From: Botryllus schlosseri
Taxonomy: Eukaryota
Length of the DNA: 60,000 nucleotides
Assembly: GCA_051294905.1 (NCBI GenBank)
Contig: CM119371.1
Span: 17,052,001 to 17,112,000, forward strand
Reading direction: 5' to 3'
A program made the translations under genes and the position numbers. Position 1 is the stretch's first letter. Every line of letters begins with the position of its first letter. The notes below the pieces were generated by a model, which worked only from the letters and a program-made list of their open reading frames with translations, made no database searches and was not told the DNA's origin. Shown here one piece after another: positions 6,004 through 55,500 of the stretch.

Positions 6004-6277
6004 GACGAAATAGCGCAGTGGTATAATCCGCGGCTGCAACACCAATGGGTGCGGGTTCGAGTCCGACCGAGGTCGACTTCCGTTACCCAAGTGTTGGAGG
6101 TTTACCTAGGCTCCTCCTCGCCACTTCATCCGCGTCAGCGGTGTCTTACAAAAGCCTAGAGGTGGGCCGTGCTATAAGTCGGCAGTTGCGGAAAATAAGA
6201 AGAATATCGGCCTGGTGTAAATGACCATAGTAGTCGACAATCACCACGAATACCCCAAAACAAACAACAAGCAACAA
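6004..6277 (+). mobile_element. tRNA-derived SINE
   Basis: A box TAGCGCAGTGG (6011), B box GGTTCGAGTCC (~6054), CAA/AAAC-rich tail, ~14-bp TSD ACATGGGCTG(T/C)AAG (5988-6001, 6278-6291). The empty site is present in the sister copy at ~7490-7520. Confidence 0.9.
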
Positions 6278-8498: not shown

Positions 8499-9072
8499 TT
8501 AAACATGGAACAGCAATGACCGATTTCGGAGCTTCGTTCCGCTTCGCTGAGGTTGGAGTGGAGAATTGTTTTGCGTAAGCGACTGTAGGATTTCTGGCAA
8601 TCCAAAAGCTATCTTCCCAAGCGCAGAAATTACTGAATCTGGTCTTGATAGAAAGCTACTGTTGTACCGATTCCGATAATATAAACTAAAATAATGATCA
8701 GGCACTGATCAACCTAGAATCTGTCATCCCGTCTGAAATATCGACATTGTTCAGAACAATCGGGTAACCGCAACACAATCGCCATAACAATGACACGTTG
8801 CGACTCTCCGATTGTTCCAACAATGACGATAATACAGACTTGGAGGACGGATTATAGGTGGATCAGTGCCTGATCACTATTTCAATTTGTATTTTCGGAA
8901 TCGGTGCCATAGTAGCTTTCGATCAGGACCAGATTCAATAATTTCTGCGCTGGGGAAGATAGCTTTTGGATTGCCAGAAATCCTACAGTCGCTTACGCAA
9001 AAAAATTCTCCACTCCAGCCTCGGCGAAGCGGAACGAAGCTGCAAATTCGGTCGTTGCCGTTCCATGTTTAA
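8499..9072. mobile_element. Foldback MITE with ~210-bp inverted arms bounded by TTAA
   Basis: Arms ~8499-8712 and ~8859-9072 are reverse complements (mirror ORFs 8499- and 8866+); ends TTAAACATGGAAC / GTTCCATGTTTAA. Superfamily (Kolobok/piggyBac-like) uncertain. Confidence 0.75.
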
Positions 9073-38682: not shown

Positions 38683-40184
38683 GGCTCTCTTATCGTACCG
38701 TCTCTGTGTCGTTGGAATACTCATTATTTGATGTGTTCTGGTTTCTCGATATCTGATCGAGTTAAGATTATTTTTTTAATCGGCCTTCCTCTGAACTCTG
38801 GTTTAAGAGAATTTCGCTGCGTAGTACATTTTTAGAGAGTGTTTTAGTCACTGCGAATGGTTTGAACAGAAACAAGAAAAAGTAACGGGAAATTAAACGG
38901 CAAAAACTGTGTTTGTAACACTGTGCGTGGAACAATGAATTTGCTTTCTCAGATACAGCTGAAAAACCGATTTGTCATATTTGTCGAAGAACAATTGTCG
39001 CGAAGAAGCATAAAATGATACAACGAAAATTTCTTCTGGAGTTATACATATAACCTGATCTTGAAAATCGTTGCTAGCTAGAAGTCAAGCCCGAGAATCT
39101 ATATTTCAAGGCATTGTTAAAATTGCCAACGACGTTACAGGCACATTGGAATAACGCTAAACCCAAGGAATTTGCTTGAGAAGGAGTAATTTCAATCAAA
39201 ATTTAAAATGCTGTGCGAATTTTCGCTGTTTCTTGCACTTAGCAGCAGGGACACCAACACATGACAGATTTCGAAGCTACAGTTGTCTGATGCAGCCGCG
39301 ACCAGAAGAGTAGCAGTAATGTCAGTCAATCTCCTATTGCACGTTGCCGCATAGACCACATTAGCCTAGCATTGGGCCACTCCACAAACTTCACAGATGC
39401 TGCATAGCAAATGATCTGGGTGCATTTTATCAGAGTGGACATATTTGCAGAGGAAATGCAGGCAAGGCAAACGTGGGGAGGGGACCAGCGAAAAGCATCA
39501 ACACTACAAAGCTGACTTCTGTAACTATTGCTGACCTCAAAACACCAGACTTTTTCTCTTATCAGGGAGAGCTCAAAGGGATAATGGCCTCTGTAACGAA
39601 AATGTTACGGTAATGCGCCGCTGGGAGATGCATTATTCTGAAAATAAAACAGCAACTGTTAACTTACGAACGGTGTCCATCATTGCTTTAGAATGCATTT
39701 ATTATTAACATTAATTGTGAAAATGGGACATTGTGGCGCTTATCACCTTATTTGCGCCACGGCAAAAAATTTCGTATTGCATGTCGCAAATCGTTTACCT
39801 AAAAAGAAAATTGCCTAAATCAACACACCAGGACGAACTCAACGAGAGGCGATAGAAGTTCCGGCAGGTTATCTATGGTGAACTCAACTTTCACGTTCAA
39901 GCAGAAATCAATCAAATATATGCTAGGTGCCAATCATATTTTGGGCATTCGAGGAGGAAGTGATCCACATTCTCGGGTACGACTTTAGAATGCATAAAAA
40001 GGTACTAAACGCCCGTCGCCCGTATAGGACTGGTAAATAGGCTACACAGTAGCCTAGGTTTAATAGTAGCCCGCAAATACATAGTAAAAATGTTCTGCGG
40101 CCCGCGGCGTCTTTTGCTGGTAAAATGCGAGTAGTGTTATGGGAATCGTTTATTGCCCGCCAATCCCAGAAGGCCACGTCGCCT

Positions 40185-40410
40185 TAATTGCCACACCTAC
40201 ATTGCCACATCATCCGCCCATTGCCGCACCTACGGGACGCCTATTGCCACATCATCCCCCCATTGCCGCACCTATAGCACACCTATTGCCACATCATCCA
40301 CCCATTGGTACATCACATACCACATTCATCTGTGTCACATCATCAAGCGTCACACCTATAGTGCCACATCATCCATTGCCACATCATCACCGCATTGATT
40401 GCCGCATCTA
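40185..40410 (+). repeat. Subterminal short tandem repeats (ATTGCCACATCATCC / ATTGCCGCACCTA units); mirrored at ~55109-55334
   Basis: Read directly; accounts for the repetitive LPHHPPIAAP ORF text. Confidence 0.85.
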
Positions 40411-40479
40411 TATTGTGCACAGCGCCGCATCAACCAGCGCGATGTCGATTGCTGCACCTATAACACTCATTACCACGCC

Positions 40480-40556
40480 AAAACTTTCCTTAGCTAGAAT
40501 CGAACCTGGCTTGGATGGGTATAATGTCACGTCGCTCACCACCGGGCTATTGAGCA
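40480..40556 (-). ncRNA. Putative tRNA-like Pol III transcription unit (left arm copy)
   Basis: Minus strand: A-box-like TAGCCCGGTGG, B-box-like GGTTCGATTCT at tRNA-like spacing, then TTTT. Confidence 0.45.
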
Positions 40557-41668
40557 AACTACCCGTATTGAGCTGTTTTGAGAATATAACCGCCGATTCT
40601 CTCTTAAATTCCGAGACAACACCTTTTTCGAGTTATTACACATAAATGTAAGACTATAACAGCTGTGTCATCATTAATTAGTCAATGATTTCGGGGAATT
40701 CTGCAAATGCAACTTAATAATACAGATATCGCAACCATAAAGGCCTACGATCACGCAAAGCTCATGCACCGCGCATATTGCCGAATACTATTCCAAGAAA
40801 TTGACGCGTGTAAATGCGGCACGAATATAGTTGCTTACGATTCCAAGAAGTCGGATCACATCGACAATATGAATTAGAACATTCTAAATATAGTTGCGAT
40901 TCCAAAAAGTCGGATCACATCGATAATGGGAATTAGAACATTCTAAATATAGTTGCGTTTCCAAGAAAACGCCGCGCTGGCGTTACGAATTAGAATGTTT
41001 AGTTCCGACGTAAAGCAATTCGCATTCTGAAAACTTCACATTTCTATTACAAGTATTGCCATGTGCGCAGGGACGCAGGTATCGCAGCTGAGGTAAGACC
41101 AATGTATTTTCGTGTCAATTTAAACTCAATTTAGCTATAATTTCTCGATGCAGCATTAGCTTACGCGAATTGTGAACGCAGATTGATTTACGTTGAGATT
41201 TCTCCAATAGCTAACGTAATGGTGAGTCCTGCGCGTGGCTATAATGTTAACCGGCAATATAGCCGAAGTCGCACAAATTCGAATGTATACGCAAGTTTTC
41301 TGTTAAAGGTAGACTATCTAGGCTCGCTTATTACTCGAATCTCGGTGTGGTTATAATAATTAGCTAGAGCAATAGTTTATCACCTATATTTAAATTCGCT
41401 CATTTCATTTCAGATCAAAACGCCGACATCGCATATACGCAATTTACGCTCGGAAAATTTCGCATTTATCACAACTATCGCGCTATGCACTTCAGCTAAT
41501 GACGCAGGTGATTTAGGCTACATTTCCGTATAGATTCGCACTAAATTTGGTTATAATTACGCGGGTATGCACTTCGGATTTGAGATGGATGTTAGTCTAT
41601 GAATTCTTGCTTTACTCGCGACCTAAAGTTGATAAATTGCGAGTTGTAGCAAGCATCTAACTACTGAG

Positions 41669-43027
41669 ATTATGCCGATTTTACAAGTCCATAAGCTGCT
41701 GCTTTTAGATATGTGATTTTAATAGCTAGTGCACTGATGCTTTTCCGATAGTGAATTAAATCTATAGCTAAACCTATGTCTATGCTATAATTTATCTCCT
41801 AAAACGCTATGCCACTGCGGGCTATAACATTTCAGATCACTGACATCACATCTGTTCCAGACGGTAGCGTTCAAGGCTACATCTTTGCGCAGCTATATCA
41901 AAGAAGTGTGCCGAGGTCGTATCAAAGTCGCTCAACTATAGCATAGATTGTGCCCGCAAAATGCAAATTCGTATTAAGTGTAGCCTGGCTAGCTTCGCTT
42001 ATTACTCAATGTTCAGTAACGCCGTATTAATGTAAGCTGCGTTTGCCGGGGCTATAGGAACGAAGTCACTCAATACAAATTCCTGGCTCTTGCTAGATGA
42101 TGATAATATGAAGCCACTACTCCATAAGCTGCTGCTTTTAGATATGTGATTTGCATTATGCCGATTTTACAAGTCCATAAGCTGCTGCTTTTAGATATGT
42201 GATTTTAATAGTTAGTGCACTGATGCTTTTCCGATAGTGAATTAAATCTATAGCTAAACCTATGTCTATACTATAATTTATCTCCTAAAACGCTATGCCA
42301 CTGCGGGCTATAACATTTCAGATCACTGACATCACATCTGTTCCAGACGCTTGCGTTCAAGGCTACATCTTTGCGCAGCTATATCAAAGAAGTGTGCCGA
42401 GGTCGTATCAAAGTCGCTCAACTATAGCATAGATTGTACCAGCAAAATGCAAATTCGTATTAAGGGTAGCCTGCCTAGTCCCGCTTATTACTCGATGTAT
42501 AGTAACGCCGTAATGTAAGTTGCGTTTGCTGTAGGAGCGAAGTCACTCAATACAAATTCCTGTTTCTTGCTAGATGATGATAATATGAAGCCACTAGCCC
42601 ATAAGCTGCTGCTTTTAGATATGTGATTTGCATTATGCCGATTTTACAAGTCCATAAGCTGCTGCTTTTAGATATGTGATTTTAATAGCTAGTGCACTGA
42701 TGCTTTTCCGACAGTGAATTAAATCTATAGCTAAACCTATGTCTATGCTATAATTTATCTCCTAAAACGGTATGCCACTGCGGGCTATAACATTTCAGAT
42801 CACTGACATCACATTTGTCCCAGACGCTAGCGTTCAAGGCTACATCTCTGCGCAGCTATATCAAAGAAGTGTGCCGAGGTCGTATCAAAGTCGCTCAACT
42901 ATAGCATAGATTGTAGCAGCAAAATGCAAATTCGTATTAAGGGTAGCCTGCCTAGTCCCGCTTATTACTCGATGTTCAGTACCGCCGTAATGTAAGCTGC
43001 GTTTGCTGTAGGAGCGAAGTCACTCAA
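41669..43027 (+). repeat. ~480-bp tandem repeat, ~3 copies; mirrored at ~52492-53850
   Basis: Unit start ATTATGCCGATTTTACAAGTCC at 41669, 42155 and 42632. Confidence 0.92.
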
Positions 43028-43574
43028 TTTTTAGATTCAAATATAGCGTATCGAGTACTTTTTTCTCAACTGTAATAAAAACTTTTAGACTCTGGATTTT
43101 GTGTAGTAGGCTATATACTAATTTACAATACCGCATTTGTAATTCGTGCAAGTACAGGAATATCATAGTTCTTGTAACAAAGTTGTCTGCGCACAATATA
43201 TGTTAATCATAAGTCCTACACATTCATGGTTTCGTCCAAGTTTGAGTTTTAGAAAATATTATACCGACATCGCGGCATCTTTTAAAAACAAAACCATGAT
43301 CAATGGTTGAGAGACCATTTTTGCTATTTTTCATTGACATAAGTCATTCTGGAACGCGAAAACGCATTGTACGATATAGATGAAAATTAAGCAAATCCTA
43401 GGATCCTCATTTTCAAAGTAGCTTAGATCTCGAAATAAGCTTTGACTCGCTATTCTCCTCAAACCATGGAATTATCACGAGTATCAGCACCTTCGATCAC
43501 TGAAGAAAAGGATGAAATTATATCCGAAGCATATTCCTTGACCAGGAATTTTATCATGTACGAACTCGACGGCT

Positions 43575-46370
43575 CATGCTAATATGTGACTCCTCACCTT
43601 GAAACTTGGTACGTAGTTGTAGGAATTGTGATAATGCAGCATACCAAATTTCCTCACGCATTTCATAATGGAACAACTTTAAAACTAACGCGGTTCTACA
43701 TCGACTTTTTGCGTACATCTGTTTTGCGTGGGGGCGTATAGCACGTACCTATACATAGTCAACTTTAACAACGGAATTACCATGCTTAACATTGAATCCC
43801 AACTCGAAACTTGATACGTAGTTGTAGAACATTATGGCAATGCACCATGCTAAATTTCATCACACATCTAATGATGGAACACCTTTAAAACTAACGCAGT
43901 CGAATACCGACTTTTACGCATATCTGTTTTGCGTGAACATAGCATATACCTATACATAGTCAATTTTAATAGCAGAATTACCGTGTTAAACATTGAATTC
44001 CCACCTTGAAAGTTGGTACGCGGTTATAGGAGATTATAACAATGCACCATACCAAATCCCATCACACATTTCATGATGGAACAACTTTAAAACTAACGCG
44101 GCTCTACATCGACTTTTTGCGTACATCTGTTTTGTGGGAGCGTATAGCACGTAGCCTACCCATACATAGCCAACTTTAATAACGGAATTACCATGCTTAA
44201 CATTGAATCCCAACTCGAAACTTGATACGTAGTTATAGGACATTATGGCAATTCACCATGCTAAATTTCATCACACATCTAATGATGGAACACCTTTGAA
44301 ACTATCGCAGTCGAATACCAACTTTTACGCATATCTGTTTTTCGTGAACATAGCATATACCCATACATAGTCAATTTTAATAACAGAATTAGCATGCTAA
44401 ACATTAAATTCTCACCTTGAACGTTGATACGCGGTTATAGGACATAATAACAATGCACCATACCAAATTTTGTCAGACATTTCATGATGTAACACCTTTA
44501 AAACCAACGCAGTTCTATACAGACTTTTGGCTAAATCTGTTTTTCCGTAGCGTAGCACGTACCTATACATAGTCAACTTTAATAACGGATTTAGCATGTT
44601 AATAATCGACTTAGTTTAAATAAAATACGGAATATAAACTAATCGAAAAATTCGGTAACCAATTTCGCGTAGGCTATGCATGCATACAAATGAGGAAAGT
44701 TACATCAACGCGTGTTAAAGTAGCTGTATCGAGTTATCGAATGATTTTTCCTTACATCAAAACAACTAGAATGTATAACTAAATTGAAAAACGTATCTAA
44801 ATGAGCTCCAGGGCATTGTGATTATGCTGCATACCAAATTTCATCACACATTTCATGATGGAACAACTTTAAAACTAACGCAGTTCTATAGCAACTTTTG
44901 CCTAAATCTGTTTTCGGTAGCGTGTACATATACATAGTCAGATTTATTAACAGAATTATCATGCTAATATGTGACTCCTCACCTTGAAACTTGGTACGTA
45001 GTTGTAGGACATTGTGATTATGCAGCATACCAAATTTCTTCACGCATTTCATAATGGAACAACTTTAAAACTAACGCGGTTCTACATCGACTTTTTGCGT
45101 ACATCTGTTTTGCGAGGGGGCGTATAGCACGTACCTATACATAGTCAACTTTAACAACGGAATTACCATGCTTAACATTGAATCCCAACTCGAAACTTGA
45201 TACGTAGTTGTAGGACATTATGGCAATGCACCATGCTAAATTTCATCACACATCTAATGATGGAACACCTTTAAAACTAACGCAGTCGAATACCGACTTT
45301 TACGCATATCTGTTTTGCGTGAACATAGCATATACCTATACATAGTCAATTTTAATAGCAGAATTACCGTGTTAAACATTGAATTCCCACCTTGAAAGTT
45401 GGTACGCGGTTATAGGAGATTATAACAATGCACCATACCAAATCCCATCACACATTTCATGATGGAACAACTTTAAAACTAACGCGGCTCTACATCGACT
45501 TTTTGCGTACATCTGTTTTGCGGGAGCGCATAGCACGTAGCCTACCCATACATAACCAAATTTAATAACGGAATTACCATGCTTAACATTGAATCCCAAC
45601 TCGAAACTTGATACGTAGTTATAGGACATTATGGCAATTCACCATGCTAAAGTTCATCACACATCTAATGATGGAACACCTTTGAAACTATCGCAGTCGA
45701 ATACCAACTTTTACGCATATCTGTTTTTCGTGAACATAGCATATACCCATACATAGTCAATTTTAATAACAGAATTAGCATGCTAAACATTAAATTCTCA
45801 CCTTGAACGTTGATACGCGGTTGTAGGACATAATAACAATGCACCATACCAAATTTCGTCAGACATTTCATGATGTAACACCTTTAAAACCAACGCAGTT
45901 CTATACAGACTTTTGGCTAAATCTGTTTTTCCGTAGCGTAGCACGTACCTATACATAGTCAACTTTAATAACGGATTTAGCATGTTAATAATCGACTCCC
46001 CACCTTGAAACTCGGTACGCAGTTGTAAGACATTATGACAATGCACCATGTCAAATTTTGTTACGCATTTCTTGATTGAACAACTTTAAAACTAACGCAG
46101 TTCCATACCGACTTTTGCGAGTGCGTAGCACGTACCTATATGCATACTCAACTTTCATAACGGAATTACCGAGCTAAACATTGAATGCGCAACTTGAAGA
46201 TTGGTTCACAGGTGTAGGGCAGTATGACAATGGAACACATCAAATTTCATCACACATTTCATGATGGAACACCTTTAAAACTAACGCAGTTCTATACCAA
46301 CCTCGCGTGAATCTGTTTGCGGGAGCGTAGCACGTACCTATGCGTGATCAACTTTAGTGATGGAATTACA
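43575..46370 (+). repeat. ~185-190-bp satellite-like array with a 1386-bp higher-order duplication; mirrored at ~49150-51945
   Basis: Recurring ACCAAATTTCATCACACATTTCATGATGGAACA.CTTTAAAACTAACGC; ORFs 44034 and 45420 are offset by 1386 bp; unique interruption at ~44610-44810. Confidence 0.92.
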
Positions 46371-46443
46371 TATGTAATTAAGTTTCAACACTTTTACAAT
46401 GATTCGTCTTGCTTCCTATAACATCCCACTCGAGAAAATGCGT

Positions 46444-47730
46444 CGTAGGATATAGATGAAACTAGCACCACTCATCAAGACCGCTGAAAACAGTACATTT
46501 CAACATTTAGTAGCAGTAAATTTCTAGTAAAGTACAAGACGTGATGATTTCCGAGTGAGCTAAAAAGTAAGTATTGCAGGTATAGTTTACCTGAAAACCG
46601 AATACTCTGAAATAGAAGTAGATGCAGTGTAAATAGTTAATCACTTGATTAAGTTTAGTGCAAGCAGATAAAACCTATACTTGAGTAGTACAAAATGCAC
46701 GAGTACTTCGCTATCGCCTCCCTCCACGTAATAAGTGTCTACGGTTTAAGACTGCTTTTACCGATACTCGTCCGTTTCAGTTTTAGATAGAATTCGGAAA
46801 CCAAATAATTTCATAGACATAAGCTAATTTAATGAATTTACTCGAATGTACTATGCTGCGCTGATAAGATTAATTATAATATACTTATCATGTTACAGCG
46901 ATTTTTCTAGCGTAGAAAATCTTTAAAATGTAGTAAGCAGGCCAAATGAAGATATTCGTTGAGCTGAATAAACATAAAAAATACTCTAGACTACTTTATC
47001 GGTACTTTACAGTTACAGTTTTAGATAAAATTTGTCCCTTTCACCCATAATTACAACTCCTCGCTATCTAAACATGTTTAGAATATATTATTTGCGATGA
47101 TACGAACCCGTGAAGTACTCAAGTTGCTTTTCGTAGGATATAGATGAAACTGACAACACTCACCAAGACCAGTGATCCACTGAAAAAAGTACATTGTAGC
47201 AGTAAAGTCCTACTAAAGTACAAGAAGTAATGATTTCCCAGTTAGTTAAAAAGTAAGTATTCAGGTATAGTTTGGTCGAAAAAGCGAAAAACTCTGAAAT
47301 AGAAGTAGATGCAGTGGAAATAGGTAATCACTTCATTAAGTATAGCGCAAGCAGGCCAAACCTATACTTAAGTACTGCAAATGTACAAGTACTTCGCTAT
47401 GTTCTCCCTCCACGTAAAAAGTGACTAGGTTTTAGAGTACTTTATCGGTACTCGACAGTTTCAGTGTTAGATGAAATTTGGTAAGACTTTAAATTTCAAA
47501 GTAGTTTGAGCTTACGTTTGTATCACCTTGACAAGTAACATTATCAGACATGAAAATGATACTATCACCGAATATAGAAGTTAACACGCGTCAGTGTGCT
47601 TCGGAATTCACGAGAAATTGCTTACTAAGAGAAGTATATTGTTGTATACACAATAGTGGAGAGAATATTTAAAATGTAGTTAGCAGGCCGATGGGTATTC
47701 GTTTAGTTGTACAGGCATAAAAAACATTCC
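46444..47730 (+). repeat. Diverged ~690-bp tandem duplication next to the palindrome centre; mirrored in the right arm
   Basis: CGTAGGATATAGATGAAACT at ~46444 and ~47132; CTCTGAAATAGAAGTAGATGCAGTG occurs in both. Confidence 0.85.
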
Positions 47731-47737
47731 CGCGCGC

Positions 47738-47781
47738 GTCTTAGTATTAGGTGGTAGGGTTAGGAAGTGTTTTGTTTAAGA
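47738..47781. other. 44-bp asymmetric central spacer of the palindrome
   Basis: GTCTTAGTATTAGGTGGTAGGGTTAGGAAGTGTTTTGTTTAAGA, between CCCGCGCGC and GCGCGCGGG. Confidence 0.95.
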
Positions 47782-50700
47782 GCGCGCGGGAATGTTTTTT
47801 ATGCCTGTACAACTAAACGAATACCCATCGGCCTGCTAACTACATTTTAAATATTCTCTCCACTATTGTGTATACAACAATATACTTCTCTTAGTAAGCA
47901 ATTTCTCGTGAATTCCGAAGCACATTGACGCGTGTTAACTTCTATATTCGGTGATAGTATCATTTTCATGTCCGATAATGTTACTTGTCAAGGTGATACA
48001 AACGTAAGCTCAAACTACTTTGAAATTTAAAGTCTTACCAAATTTTATCTAACACTGAAACTGTCGAGTACCGATAAAGTACTCTAAAACCTAGTCACTT
48101 TTTACGTGGAGGGAGAACATAGCGAAGTACTTGTACATTTGCAGTACTTAAGTATAGGTTTGGCCTGCTTGCGCTATACTTAATGAAGTGATTACCTATT
48201 TACACTGCATCTACTTCTATTTCAGAGTTTTTCGCTTTTTCGACCAAACTATACCTGAATACTTACTTTTTAACTAACTGGGAAATCATTACTTCTTGTA
48301 CTTTAGTAGGACTTTACTGCTACAATGTACTTTTTTCAGTGGATCACTGGTCTTGGTGAGTGTTGTCAGTTTCATCTATATCCTACGAAAAGCAACTTGA
48401 GTACTTCACGGGTTCGTATCATCGCAAATAATATATTCTAAACATGTTTAGATAGCGAGGAGTTGTAATTATGGGTGAAAGGGACAAATTTTATCTAAAA
48501 CTGTAACTGTAAAGTACCGATAAAGTAGTCTAGAGTATTTTTTATGTTTATTCAGCTCAACGAATATCTTCATTTGGCCTGCTTACTACATTTTAAAGAT
48601 TTTCTACGCTAGAAAAATCGCTGTAACATGATAAGTATATTATAATTAATCTTATCAGCGCAGCATAGTACATTCGAGTAAATTCATTAAATTAGCTTAT
48701 GTTTATGAAATTATTTGGTTTCCGAATTCTATCTAAAACTGAAACGGACGAGTATCGGTAAAAGCAGTCTTAAACCGTAGACACTTATTACGTGGAGGGA
48801 GGCGATAGCGAAGTACTCGTGCATTTTGTACTACTCAAGTATAGGTTTTATCTGCTTGCACTAAACTTAATCAAGTGATTAACTATTTACACTGCATCTA
48901 CTTCTATTTCAGAGTATTCGGTTTTCAGGTAAACTATACCTGCAATACTTACTTTTTAGCTCACTCGGAAATCATCACGTCTTGTACTTTACTAGAAATT
49001 TACTGCTACTAAATGTTGAAATGTACTGTTTTCAGCGGTCTTGATGAGTGGTGCTAGTTTCATCTATATCCTACGACGCATTTTCTCGAGTGGGATGTTA
49101 TAGGAAGCAAGACGAATCATTGTAAAAGTGTTGAAACTTAATTACATATGTAATTCCATCACTAAAGTTGATCACGCATAGGTACGTGCTACGCTCCCGC
49201 AAACAGATTCACGCGAGGTTGGTATAGAACTGCGTTAGTTTTAAAGGTGTTCCATCATGAAATGTGTGATGAAATTTGATGTGTTCCATTGTCATACTGC
49301 CCTACACCTGTGAACCAATCTTCAAGTTGCGCATTCAATGTTTAGCTCGGTAATTCCGTTATGAAAGTTGAGTATGCATATAGGTACGTGCTACGCACTC
49401 GCAAAAGTCGGTATGGAACTGCGTTAGTTTTAAAGTTGTTCAATCAAGAAATGCGTAACAAAATTTGACATGGTGCATTGTCATAATGTCTTACAACTGC
49501 GTACCGAGTTTCAAGGTGGGGAGTCGATTATTAACATGCTAAATCCGTTATTAAAGTTGACTATGTATAGGTACGTGCTACGCTACGGAAAAACAGATTT
49601 AGCCAAAAGTCTGTATAGAACTGCGTTGGTTTTAAAGGTGTTACATCATGAAATGTCTGACGAAATTTGGTATGGTGCATTGTTATTATGTCCTACAACC
49701 GCGTATCAACGTTCAAGGTGAGAATTTAATGTTTAGCATGCTAATTCTGTTATTAAAATTGACTATGTATGGGTATATGCTATGTTCACGAAAAACAGAT
49801 ATGCGTAAAAGTTGGTATTCGACTGCGATAGTTTCAAAGGTGTTCCATCATTAGATGTGTGATGAACTTTAGCATGGTGAATTGCCATAATGTCCTATAA
49901 CTACGTATCAAGTTTCGAGTTGGGATTCAATGTTAAGCATGGTAATTCCGTTATTAAATTTGGTTATGTATGGGTAGGCTACGTGCTATGCGCTCCCGCA
50001 AAACAGATGTACGCAAAAAGTCGATGTAGAGCCGCGTTAGTTTTAAAGTTGTTCCATCATGAAATGTGTGATGGGATTTGGTATGGTGCATTGTTATAAT
50101 CTCCTATAACCGCGTACCAACTTTCAAGGTGGGAATTCAATGTTTAACACGGTAATTCTGCTATTAAAATTGACTATGTATAGGTATATGCTATGTTCAC
50201 GCAAAACAGATATGCGTAAAAGTCGGTATTCGACTGCGTTAGTTTTAAAGGTGTTCCATCATTAGATGTGTGATGAAATTTAGCATGGTGCATTGCCATA
50301 ATGTCCTACAACTACGTATCAAGTTTCGAGTTGGGATTCAATGTTAAGCATGGTAATTCCGTTGTTAAAGTTGACTATGTATAGGTACGTGCTATACGCC
50401 CCCACGCAAAACAGATGTACGCAAAAAGTCGATGTAGAACCGCGTTAGTTTTAAAGTTGTTCCATTATGAAATGCGTGAAGAAATTTGGTATGCTGCATA
50501 ATCACAATGTCCTACAACTACGTACCAAGTTTCAAGGTGAGGAGTCACATATTAGCATGATAATTCTGTTAATAAATCTGACTATGTATATGTACACGCT
50601 ACCGAAAACAGATTTAGGCAAAAGTTGCTATAGAACTGCGTTAGTTTTAAAGTTGTTCCATCATGAAATGTGTGATGAAATTTGGTATGCAGCATAATCA

Positions 50701-53700
50701 CAATGCCCTGGAGCTCATTTAGATACGTTTTTCAATTTAGTTATACATTCTAGTTGTTTTGATGTAAGGAAAAATCATTCGATAACTCGATACAGCTACT
50801 TTAACACGCGTTGATGTAACTTTCCTCATTTGTATGCATGCATAGCCTACGCGAAATTGGTTACCGAATTTTTCGATTAGTTTATATTCCGTATTTTATT
50901 TAAACTAAGTCGATTATTAACATGCTAAATCCGTTATTAAAGTTGACTATGTATAGGTACGTGCTACGCTACGGAAAAACAGATTTAGCCAAAAGTCTGT
51001 ATAGAACTGCGTTGGTTTTAAAGGTGTTACATCATGAAATGTCTGACGAAATTTGGTATGGTGCATTGCTATTATGTCCTATAACCGCGTATCAACGTTC
51101 AAGGTGAGAATTTAATGTTTAGCATGCTAATTCTGTTATTAAAATTGACTATGTATGGGTATATGCTATGTTCACGAAAAACAGATATGCGTAAAAGTTG
51201 GTATTCGACTGCGATAGTTTCAAAGGTGTTCCATCATTAGATGTGTGATGAAATTTAGCATGGTGAATTGCCATAATGTCCTATAACTACGTATCAAGTT
51301 TCGAGTTGAGATTCAATGTTAAGCATGGTAATTCCGTTATTAAAGTTGGCTATGTATGGGTAGGCTACGTGCTATACGCTCCCACAAAACAGATGTACGC
51401 AAAAAGTCGATGTAGAGCCGCGTTAGTTTTAAAGTTGTTCCATCATGAAATGTGTGATGGGATTTGGTATGGTGCATTGTTATAATCTCCTATAACCGCG
51501 TACCAACTTTCAAGGTGGAAATTCAATGTTTAACACGGTAATTCTGCTATTAAAATTGACTATGTATAGGTATATGCTATGTTCACGCAAAACAGATATG
51601 CGTAAAAGTCGGTATTCGACTGCGTTAGTTTTAAAGGTGTTCCATCATTAGATGTGTGATGAAATTTAGCATGGTGCATTGCCATAATGTTCTACAACTA
51701 CGTATCAAGTTTCGAGTTGGGATTCAATGTTAAGCATGGTAATTCCGTTGTTAAAGTTGACTATGTATAGGTACGTGCTATACGCCCCCACGCAAAACAG
51801 ATGTACGCAAAAAGTCGATGTAGAACCGCGTTAGTTTTAAAGTTGTTCCATTATGAAATGCGTGAGGAAATTTGGTATGCTGCATTATCACAATTCCTAC
51901 AACTACGTACCAAGTTTCAAGGTGAGGAGTCACATATTAGCATGAGCCGTCGAGTTCGTACATGATAAAATTCCTGGTCAAGGAATATGCTTCGGATATA
52001 ATTTCATCCTTTTCTTCAGTGATCGAAGGTGCTGATACTCGTGATAATTCCATGGTTTGAGGAGAATAGCGAGTCAAAGCTTATTTCGAGATCTAAGCTA
52101 CTTTGAAAATGAGGATCCTAGGATTTGCTTAATTTTCATCTATATCGTACAATGCGTTTTCGCGTTCCAGAATGACTTATGTCAATGAAAAATAGCAAAA
52201 ATGGTCTCTCAACCATTGATCATGGTTTTGTTTTTAAAAGATGCCGCGATGTCGGTATAATATTTTCTAAAACTCAAACTTGGACGAAACCATGAATGTG
52301 TAGGACTTATGATTAACATATATTGTGCGCAGACAACTTTGTTACAAGAACTATGATATTCCTGTACTTGCACGAATTACAAATGCGGTATTGTAAATTA
52401 GTATATAGCCTACTACACAAAATCCAGAGTCTAAAAGTTTTTATTACAGTTGAGAAAAAAGTATTCGATACGCTATATTTGAATCTAAAAATTGAGTGAC
52501 TTCGCTCCTACAGCAAACGCAGCTTACATTACGGCGGTACTGAACATCGAGTAATAAGCGGGACTAGGCAGGCTACCCTTAATACGAATTTGCATTTTGC
52601 TGCTACAATCTATGCTATAGTTGAGCGACTTTGATACGACCTCGGCACACTTCTTTGATATAGCTGCGCAGAGATGTAGCCTTGAACGCAAGCGTCTGGG
52701 ACAAATGTGATGTCAGTGATCTGAAATGTTATAGCCCGCAGTGGCATACCGTTTTAGGAGATAAATTATAGCATAGACATAGGTTTATCTATAGATTTAA
52801 TTCACTGTCGGAAAAGCATCAGTGCACTAGCTATTAAAATCACATATCTAAAAGCAGCAGCTTATGGACTTGTAAAATCGGCATAATGCAAATCACATAT
52901 CTAAAAGCAGCAGCTTATGGGCTAGTGGCTTCATATTATCATCATCTAGCAAGAAACAGGAATTTGTATTGAGTGACTTCGCTCCTACAGCAAACGCAAC
53001 TTACATTACGGCGTTACTATACATCGAGTAATAAGCGGGACTAGGCAGGCTACCCTTAATACGAATTTGCATTTTGCTGGTACAATCTATGCTATAGTTG
53101 AGCGACTTTGATACGACCTCGGCACACTTCTTTGATATAGCTGCGCAAAGATGTAGCCTTGAACGCAAGCGTCTGGAACAGATGTGATGTCAGTGATCTG
53201 AAATGTTATAGCCCGCAGTGGCATAGCGTTTTAGGAGATAAATTATAGTATAGACATAGGTTTAGCTATAGATTTAATTCACTATCGGAAAAGCATCAGT
53301 GCACTAACTATTAAAATCACATATCTAAAAGCAGCAGCTTATGGACTTGTAAAATCGGCATAATGCAAATCACATATCTAAAAGCAGCAGCTTATGGAGT
53401 AGTGGCTTCATATTATCATCATCTAGCAAGAGCCAGGAATTTGTATTGAGTGACTTCGTTCCTATAGCCCCGGCAAACGCAGCTTACATTAATACGGCGT
53501 TACTGAACATTGAGTAATAAGCGAAGCTAGCCAGGCTACACTTAATACGAATTTGCATTTTGCGGGCACAATCTATGCTATAGTTGAGCGACTTTGATAC
53601 GACCTCGGCACACTTCTTTGATATAGCTGCGCAAAGATGTAGCCTTGAACGCTACCGTCTGGAACAGATGTGATGTCAGTGATCTGAAATGTTATAGCCC

Positions 53701-54962
53701 GCAGTGGCATAGCGTTTTAGGAGATAAATTATAGCATAGACATAGGTTTAGCTATAGATTTAATTCACTATCGGAAAAGCATCAGTGCACTAGCTATTAA
53801 AATCACATATCTAAAAGCAGCAGCTTATGGACTTGTAAAATCGGCATAATCTCAGTAGTTAGATGCTTGCTACAACTCGCAATTTATCAACTTTAGGTCG
53901 CGAGTAAAGCAAGAATTCATAGACTAACATCCATCTCAAATCCGAAGTGCATACCCGCGTAATTATAACCAAATTTAGTGCGAATCTATACGGAAATGTA
54001 GCCTAAATCACCTGCGTCATTAGCTGAAGTGCATAGCGCGATAGTTGTGATAAATGCGAAATTTTCCGAGCGTAAATTGCGTATATGCGATGTCGGCGTT
54101 TTGATCTGAAATGAAATGAGCGAATTTAAATATAGGTGATAAACTATTGCTCTAGCTAATTATTATAACCACACCGAGATTCGAGTAATAAGCGAGCCTA
54201 GATAGTCTACCTTTAACAGAAAACTTGCGTATACATTCGAATTTGTGCGACTTCGGCTATATTGCCGGTTAACATTATAGCCACGCGCAGGACTCACCAT
54301 TACGTTAGCTATTGGAGAAATCTCAACGTAAATCAATCTGCGTTCACAATTCGCGTAAGCTAATGCTGCATCGAGAAATTATAGCTAAATTGAGTTTAAA
54401 TTGACACGAAAATACATTGGTCTTACCTCAGCTGCGATGCCTGCGTCCCTGCGCACATGGCAATACTTGTAATAGAAATGTGAAGTTTTCAGAATGCGAA
54501 TTGCTTTACGTCGGAACTAAACATTCTAATTCGTAACGCCAGCGCGGCGTTTTCTTGGAAACGCAACTATATTTAGAATGTTCTAATTCCCATTATCGAT
54601 GTGATCCGACTTTTTGGAATCGCAACTATATTTAGAATGTTCTAATTCATATTGTCGATGTGATCCGACTTCTTGGAATCGTAAGCAACTATATTCGTGC
54701 CGCATTTACACGCGTCAATTTCTTGGAATAGTATTCGGCAATATGCGCGGTGCATGAGCTTTGCGTGATCGTAGGCCTTTATGGTTGCGATATCTGTATT
54801 ATTAAGTTGCATTTGCAGAATTCCCCGAAATCATTGACTAATTAATGATGACACAGCTGTTATAGTCTTACATTTATGTGTAATAACTCGAAAAAGGTGT
54901 TGTCTCGGAATTTAAGAGAGAATCGGCGGTTATATTCTCAAAACAGCTCAATACGGGTAGTT

Positions 54963-55039
54963 TGCTCAATAGCCCGGTGGTGAGCGACGTGACATTATAC
55001 CCATCCAAGCCAGGTTCGATTCTAGCTAAGGTAAGTTTT
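54963..55039 (+). ncRNA. Putative tRNA-like Pol III transcription unit (right arm copy)
   Basis: TAGCCCGGTGG at 54970, GGTTCGATTCT at 55013, TTTT at 55036-55039. Confidence 0.45.
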
Positions 55040-55500
55040 GGCGTGGTAATGAGTGTTATAGGTGCAGCAATCGACATCGCGCTGGTTGATGCGGCGCTGT
55101 GCACAATATAGATGCGGCAATCAATGCGGAGATGATGTGGCAATGGATGATGTGGCACTATAGGTGTGACGCTTGATGATGTGACACAGATGAATGTGGT
55201 ATGTGATGTACCAATGGGTGGATGATGTGGCAATAGGTGTGCTATAGGTGCGGCAATGGGGGGATGATGTGGCAATAGGCGTCCCGTAGGTGCGGCAATG
55301 GGCGGATGATGTGGCAATGTAGGTGTGGCAATTAAGGCGACGTGGCCTTCTGGGATTGGCGGGCAATAAACGATTCCCATAACACTACTAATGCGGCCCG
55401 TTATACACGGGAAGTTGAGAACCCCTGGAGTAGAGGTAGAGATGATTGAAAATGAAGAATCGAAATTACAGAAATTATGCTGTGATTCACAAGTGTAATT

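Follow-up and report, generated by a model that had tools for sequence, protein, structure and literature searches.

A conserved tRNA-like Pol III unit at the capsid-side end of one Polinton lineage in Botryllus schlosseri

The window analysed here, a stretch of 60,000 nucleotides (60 kb) of the Botryllus schlosseri genome, harbors a 15.26-kb fold-back element at positions 40130–55389. The element begins with AGTAGT, terminates in ACTACT and is flanked by a 6-bp target-site duplication (AATGCG on the plus strand, at 40124–40129 on the left and 55390–55395 on the right). The left arm (40130–47737) and the right arm (47782–55389) are 7608 bp long each, have 16 mismatches between them and enclose a unique fold-back centre of 44 bp (47738–47781). 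Both arms are repeat arrays, and the core genes of an autonomous Polinton are absent from the window element, in which the longest stop-to-stop frame comprises at most 173 codons. By integrase and capsid searches, the Polintons of this genome fall into at least four groups, A, A2, B and C (a lower bound), with integrase/capsid identities to family A of 94–100% within A, about 82% for A2, 66–69% for B and 52–54% for C. The outer 2.7 kb of the right arm displayed 97% identity to the capsid-side end of one coding family-A Polinton. In addition, a 174-bp segment at 51940–52113, mirrored in the left arm, matched at 86% the region in which the Bcl-2 frame begins in a coding copy.

At positions 54963–55039 of the plus strand, 350 bp inside the right terminus at 55389, the right arm carries a Pol III type-2 unit of tRNA geometry that points out of the element. 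With the start site placed according to tRNA geometry, the predicted RNA has a length of about 75–80 nt. The original prediction had described an A box, a B box about 43 nt downstream and a TTTT run about 12 nt later, and all three motifs were found: the A-box-like TAGCCCGGTGG at 54970–54980, the B box GGTTCGATTC(T) at 55013–55022, starting 43 nt after the start of the A box, and a T4 run as candidate terminator at 55036–55039, located 12 nt past the B-box 11-mer and 13 nt past the B box at 55013–55022 (all on the plus strand). A further conserved motif at 54932–54948 (plus strand; approximately −30 to −15) lies just upstream. The mirror copy that had been predicted at 40480–40556 is present on the minus strand, with the A box at 40539–40549, the B box at 40497–40506, T4 at 40480–40483 and a copy of the upstream motif at 40571–40587. 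It differs from the right unit by a single base (40487/55032) and, since it is part of the duplicated arm, provides no independent evidence.

The sequence thus has an A box near the 5′ end, a B box within 30–60 nt and an oligo-T run behind, as is typical for type-2 Pol III genes. The A-to-B spacing of 43 nt compares with 42–43 nt in intact tRNA genes located in sister families of the element. T4 is a normal stop in this genome, being the first T run behind tRNA genes in 39 of the 53 contexts examined. The window A box has one deviation from the consensus, a G where tRNAs have the invariant A14; several diverged family-A relatives have an A box without this deviation and fit the pattern fully. 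The combined A+B pattern, built on the consensus of the two boxes, occurred 0.15 times per shuffled 60-kb window, with at least one occurrence in 13.5% of the shuffled windows, and host flank yielded 4 matches per 132 kb, one of which had T4 in place. A single A+B match in 60 kb is therefore not rare, and the above-chance evidence is the recurrence of the unit at Polinton ends.

The unit had been predicted not to be a canonical tRNA, and our analysis agrees. ARAGORN found 0 tRNAs in the 60-kb window, Rfam at E≤10 matched the unit neither to tRNA (RF00005) nor to VA RNA, and the cloverleaf register accommodated 12 of 21 pairs, at the level of shuffled sequences (mean 10.6, p = 0.31), compared to 21 and 20 pairs in true tRNA controls. 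The predicted fold of the window unit was no better than that of shuffles (z of +1.0 to +1.5). No conserved fold was detected across 20 family-A-type units, for which alifold yielded −0.1 kcal/mol (115 of 200 column shuffles were as low) and the mean single-sequence z was +0.85, indicating slightly worse folding than in shuffles. We further inspected parts (3–25% each) of four raw RNA runs. Positions 54600–55199 were covered by 16, 2, 0, and 13 reads, and the unit itself had a depth of 0 in three runs and 1–2 in one, with no joints; as the libraries were of mRNA-type cDNA with 90–150-nt reads and thus unsuited to a 77-nt RNA, these counts are no test of such a transcript. In run X16, three reads of a related element end at 55149 in a poly(A) run within the terminal repeat, in outward orientation, which may represent a Pol II end or internal priming.

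Genome searches place the unit at Polinton ends. A search with the unit plus flanks returned 94 candidates, of which 40 were scored, and all 30 loci fetched run on into the element arm. A pattern of the unit body devoid of the B box matched the genome 105 times at ≤2 mismatches, compared to a single match of the control, and the B-box 13-mer had 117 exact matches; among the first 30 of these, 25 were Polinton ends (23 in the arm, two in another Polinton subfamily) and the remaining five unrelated tRNA or SINE heads. The unit is therefore present in about 105 copies, with those inspected located in Polinton ends. Heads of tRNA-derived SINEs likewise have A and B boxes at tRNA spacing and have lost the cloverleaf. 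In contrast, the window unit has no SINE body or tail, as predicted, and no target duplication of its own; it has its own T4 and occurs undispersed. A common dispersed SINE head, one of three points that together would have contradicted the original prediction, was ruled out by the 30 of 30 loci within the element arm and by the genome-wide copy count; a second point, a lack of conservation in related elements, is contradicted by the data below. An old, diverged SINE may nevertheless be the source of the unit. An ordinary-looking tRNA-derived SINE head does occur elsewhere in the window, at 6011–6063, and recurs in the flank of locus L188; its body is unrelated to the terminal unit.

Conservation at the same position in related elements, proposed originally as a check, was examined and was found in diverged family-A ends and in family A2. 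Among 18 distinct family-A haplotypes (rows L159 and L029 were left out), none of the 14 key columns, including those of the A box, was variable, compared to 56 of 292 other columns (p = 0.055; p = 0.25 if only shared variants are considered); taken alone, the family-A column test is weak. We then compared 16 diverged copies, taken from 20 matches to the body pattern that lack, or are not listed with, the exact B-box 13-mer, after exclusion of mirror, truncated and centre copies and of L293, L295, L296, and L309. The B box and T4 lie outside the pattern by which these copies were found. Relative to the window unit, 12 of 192 cells differed at key letters located outside this pattern, compared to 219 of 672 at other letters, and in the seven most diverged copies the numbers were 4 of 84 and 130 of 294, where cells represent non-independent events. 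The B core was present in 11 of the 16 selected copies and damaged in five, while T4 was present in 14 and missing in two. As matches were obtained by motifs or similarity, the sample is biased toward conserved copies. Diverged copies with a visible terminus end 45–111 bp behind the unit, which again faces outward. These data show that promoter and terminator letters are preferentially conserved in a module of fixed, outward position.

Eight further elements are bounded by paired units, five of them fold-backs and three with long frames; six have exact target duplications, one a duplication with a single mismatch, and one was unparsed. The long frames of the coding elements encode an rve integrase with chromodomain (E = 2e-13) and an A32-type ATPase (Pox_A32, E = 8e-9), and the helper capsid displayed a weak jelly-roll Pfam match (E about 0.01). 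The PolB profile PF03175 matched only a family-C frame (E = 5.5e-8), to which the corresponding family-A frame is 37% identical. Relatives of the capsid and the polymerase were looked for in viral contigs and none were found. The integrase and ATPase genes of the helper, together with the AGTAGT/ACTACT ends and the 6-bp duplication, support the earlier assignment of the host element to Polinton relatives. The published description of vertebrate Polintons/Mavericks, in its accessible text, gives (AGT)2//(ACT)2 ends, 6-bp duplications, terminal repeats of some hundred bp and sizes of 13–25 kb (PMC8097293); the window element has such ends and such a duplication and differs from these elements in being a gene-less, wholly palindromic derivative. 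The coding Polintons also carry accessory genes with Bcl-2 and BIR/IAP domains and, in family B1, a caspase-domain frame (L098:6594–7271, L098:8780–9412, L119:2252–2863, and L111:7862–8632). One coding copy contains a BEL/Pao-type retrotransposon-like frame (DUF1759, DUF5641; L097:6869–10000 and L098:1–1167), and a 22-kb element (L094–L096; G000:C1:40580100–40602900) consists of nested fold-backs with multiple palindrome centres within one insertion.

Coding family-A helpers mostly carry the unit at a single end, on the capsid side; in three coding copies both ends contain it. From the end predicted to be polymerase-side in coding copies of family A we took 19 stretches, 11 of which had a visible terminus, and the unit was absent in all 11. 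These ends still share the motif located just upstream of the unit. Among nine end pairs, seven had an exact 6-bp duplication (one after a shift by one ACT repeat), one had a single mismatch and one was unmatched. As a target duplication is common to at least seven of the nine end pairs, ends devoid of the unit do integrate. We conclude that the unit belongs natively to the coding Polintons of one lineage, at their capsid-side end. Since the helpers are mostly single-ended, the two-copy layout is a product of repeat extension or fold-back; the claim of one unit inside each terminus is hence true of the window element, as a fold-back result, but does not extend to the coding helpers. Three ends retained the B box and T4 and had no recognisable A box. 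In three polymerase-side family-A ends (L162, L171, and L183), a second, inward-facing B box occurs approximately 330–400 bp inside the end in a T-arm-like stem; it has no clear A box and is kept between diverged ends.

The terminal 30 bp of the window element (55360–55389 on the plus strand, mirrored at 40130–40159) are the presumed origin and integrase site, and are hypervariable among family copies and apparently shuffled from short modules. Terminal segments occurred in 36 distinct forms among 47 distinct family-A ends, 34 of them exactly 30 nt long, with a mean pairwise difference of 53% over the inner 25 nt, compared to identities of 96–98% between the integrases. Among the seven end pairs with exact target duplication, three had different terminal 30-mers at the two ends.

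The unit is absent from the terminal repeats of families B and C and from all 17 loci of a further group of ends that share terminal modules (L184–L200; four elements were read through). These absences indicate that the unit is lineage-specific and dispensable for the movement of some ends. A requirement for mobility is also unsupported, as related non-coding elements devoid of the unit exist.

In sister family A2, a terminal repeat of approximately 430 bp contains a tandem pair of outward-facing units plus a third B box, at both ends of the copies read. The geometry of these units, with 44 nt from A to B and 14 nt from B to T4, is close to that of the window unit (43 and 13 nt), while the unit bodies are unrelated to it (z about 0). 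ARAGORN and Rfam returned no match for the A2 units either. The tandem A2 paralogues differ at 20 of 58 ordinary positions and at none of 14 key positions (p = 0.006), a test that is partly circular because one of the units was found by motif. Across 29 A2 ends, 8 of 28 key columns were variable within the units, compared to 58 of 116 others (p = 0.03), and pooling of A2 with A yielded 8 of 42 and 70 of 172 (p = 0.006); the common changes in the A2 B box occur at tolerant B-box positions. In 38 gap-free copies, the A2 units shared a modest, extended hairpin that surrounds the B box and in which wobble changes predominate. The 5′ letters of diverged A units resemble those of A2 units, which suggests common descent of the two.

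Sister families B1 and B2 contain intact tRNA genes, for Ala in B1 and for Ala, Pro and Leu in B2. The genes are tRNA-Ala(TGC), tRNA-Pro(TGG), and tRNA-Leu(TAA) (L111:7277–7348; L114:7738–7810 and 8526–8597; L116:1444–1527). In a comparison by eye, 24 of the 63 tRNA matches listed were located a few kb away from a match to the integrase or capsid of family B. Codon compensation by these genes was considered and rejected, as family-B genes show no preference for the codons concerned (19–27% of their codon families). The further group of ends (L184–L200) contains worn tRNA-Leu copies. Judged from this series in sister families, which starts with intact tRNA genes and ends with worn copies of tRNA-Leu, a Polinton-borne tRNA gene is the likely ancestor of the unit. 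A search for the parent isotype, covering Lys, Glu, Met, and Ala genes at 30 loci, gave best local scores of 46–48 compared to shuffle maxima of about 40–50. One of the host regions (G000:C3:34.49–34.51 Mb, L040–L057) is densely packed with tandemly arrayed tRNA-Lys(TTT) genes that include many variants.

In 77 distant metagenome Polinton loci, totalling 509 kb, the A/B pattern matched seven times compared to a shuffle expectation of 0.6, with five matches outside open frames. One extra unit was recognised by its B box, and one unit was an Rfam tRNA. The tRNA-like A/B units located between genes occur in L226, L229, L240, L257, and L264, that of L229 with an internal T6 before the B box; none of the metagenome units lies within a demonstrable terminal repeat. 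Their assignment as Polinton Pol III units is suggestive only, as host SINEs could give a similar density.

The placement, copy number and geometry of the unit are direct observations, and a function can be proposed from them. We tentatively favour a role in cis, in which a tRNA-derived Pol III unit would be kept for factor loading and terminated transcription beside the element end, because conservation covers the letters of promoter and stop but not the transcribed body or its fold. By this mechanism, fold-back replication would have copied the native capsid-side unit into both ends of the gene-less derivative. As is known for type-2 Pol III promoters, host TFIIIC would bind the A and B boxes and load TFIIIB upstream, and Pol III would make a short, unstructured RNA of approximately 77 nt that stops at T4, ahead of the terminal origin and 350 bp from the end. 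Occupancy, or the act of transcription, may then create an open or boundary-like patch that protects the end, together with the late genes beside it, from host chromatin. A role of occupancy is supported by the three ends that retain the B box and T4 and lack a recognisable A box. In yeast, TFIIIC-bound sites and tRNA genes act as chromatin boundaries (PMC3395662, accessible text). The tDNA barriers and ETC sites described there are centred on B boxes, as are these three ends, with factor occupancy that here is proposed from sequence; ETC sites differ in that they do not recruit Pol III, whereas the window unit has retained both A box and terminator and resides on a mobile element. Against a role in cis stand the weak family-A column test, the absence of the unit from all polymerase-side ends with visible terminus, which nonetheless integrate, its absence from all further-group ends and from the terminal repeats of families B and C, and the damaged B cores and lost T4 runs in selected copies. 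The retained terminator is equally compatible with a selected RNA product.

Such a product would be a Polinton-made Pol III RNA, roughly 77 nt long and active in trans in the manner of VA RNA in adenovirus or BocaSR in bocavirus; it is possible and in our view rather unlikely. The RNA could serve as a replication cofactor or, as a decoy, could bind La, Dicer or an innate sensor, and the fold-back satellites would carry two copies each. The terminator is kept as well as the promoter, at fixed distance; the unit is duplicated in A2, where a hairpin surrounds the B box; like BocaSR, the unit lies between capsid genes and terminus; and helpers with Bcl-2 and BIR genes are a sign of host conflict. 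However, family A has no conserved or stable fold, the A and A2 bodies are unrelated, Rfam, including VA RNA, was unmatched at E≤10, and the length is about half that of BocaSR. BocaSR is a 140-nt Pol III RNA with internal A and B boxes from the 3′ non-coding region of human bocavirus 1 and is needed for DNA replication (PMC8242256 and PMC11194592, accessible text). Like the window unit, it is a gene-internal A/B-box Pol III unit in a non-coding region by the capsid-side end, there of a small linear DNA virus. In contrast to the predicted transcript of the window unit, with about 77 nt and no conserved fold, BocaSR is structured and abundant, and its role in replication has been demonstrated (same sources). 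The VA RNAs I and II of adenovirus share the type-2 promoter and the setting of a protein-primed linear dsDNA element related to Polintons (in part from the accessible text of PMC8242256). The window unit differs from them in being half the size, in having no terminal, central and apical stems, and in its position in or beside the terminal repeat instead of mid-genome. The stable conserved stem structure of 140–170 nt that characterises RNAs of the VA/BocaSR type was not found in the window unit. Given the missing cloverleaf, conserved fold and Rfam match, the unit is not VA-like in structure. The comparison with VA RNA made in the original prediction therefore stands with respect to type-2 boxes in a Polinton element but not to a stable fold or an Rfam match; both a 75–80-nt RNA and a boundary element are live readings, the former without a stable VA-type fold.

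The broader reading of an undescribed class of terminal Pol III genes in animal Polintons, worn from captured tRNA genes and producing a trans RNA for replication or evasion of host defence, which fold-back satellites keep and double, we regard as unlikely. If it is true, gene-less satellites would supply or compete with their helper through RNA.

That the unit is a passive passenger of the terminal region, a tRNA gene or the head of an old SINE that an ancestor acquired on a single occasion and that has been decaying since, appears decidedly unlikely. The loss of the cloverleaf, the sister-family series down to worn tRNA-Leu remnants and the many ends devoid of the unit are in accordance with decay, as is the zero read depth in three of four RNA runs (a weak point in view of the library type), and motif- and similarity-based finding favours conserved copies. 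However, under neutral decay the letters of boxes and terminator would not be spared when 36–57% of the others change; the diverged family-A copies, found by a pattern that excludes the B box and T4, mostly retained them, and the tandem A2 paralogues do not differ at any key position. The abundant-looking SINE head nearby (6011–6063) has an unrelated body.

It is very improbable that the letters are conserved for a reason other than Pol III, such as a splice donor, an antisense frame, or a binding site of an element protein. The right copy has a perfect AG|GTAAGT at 55030/55031, before T4, which would close an 84-nt exon with one frame open, but the left window copy has no GT at this site, GTRAG survives in just 6 of the 16 selected copies, the seven most diverged all having lost it, and no joints or loose ends occurred at the site in the four RNA runs. 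A splice donor was therefore rejected. An antisense frame of 67 codons from 55077 is open in most family-A ends, and variants are unevenly distributed over its codon positions (18, 6, and 5). This frame was rejected as well, as it has 25 replacement and 4 silent changes (dN/dS of about 2) and one stop; the frame opposite to it has several stops. The 3-base periodicity of variants at 54874–55077, where neither strand is coding-like, is probably due to chance. A mere chance match to loose consensus motifs, conceivable from the rate in shuffled windows and from the deviation of the A box at a normally invariant position, is scarcely credible in view of the same geometry, direction and place in A2 with its unrelated body, the full A-box fit in diverged family-A ends and a flank background, T4 included, of 1 per 132 kb.

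tRNA genes on polinton-like viruses and viral Pol III RNAs are already in print. Among protist polinton-like viruses and virophages, 558 tRNA matches were reported in 8300 genomes scanned (PMC12220804, accessible text), and tRNA genes are also described in the accessible text of PMC8502044. As in the sister families studied here, these are tRNA-type Pol III genes on relatives of Polintons; the window unit, in contrast, is no tRNA, has a fixed place at the end and would be missed by scans of the kind used in those studies. The main text of PMC8097293 does not contain the words 'tRNA', 'non-coding', or 'non-autonomous'. A search of open literature yielded no description of a Pol III unit at the ends of Polintons in animals; subscription journals, repeat databases or supplements may already annotate it.

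The unit is real and conserved, with a function that we propose. Were it only a relic, it would amount to a minor annotation detail. Since standard tRNA and Rfam scans miss it, the unit is possibly widespread and overlooked. Polintons have been described via their proteins, and their non-coding ends are almost unstudied. The unit forms a link between the tRNA genes known from relatives in protists and the small RNAs that adenoviruses and parvoviruses produce with Pol III, and a conserved terminal Pol III unit represents a testable handle on end accessibility, or on a VA/BocaSR-like RNA, in integrated Polintons.
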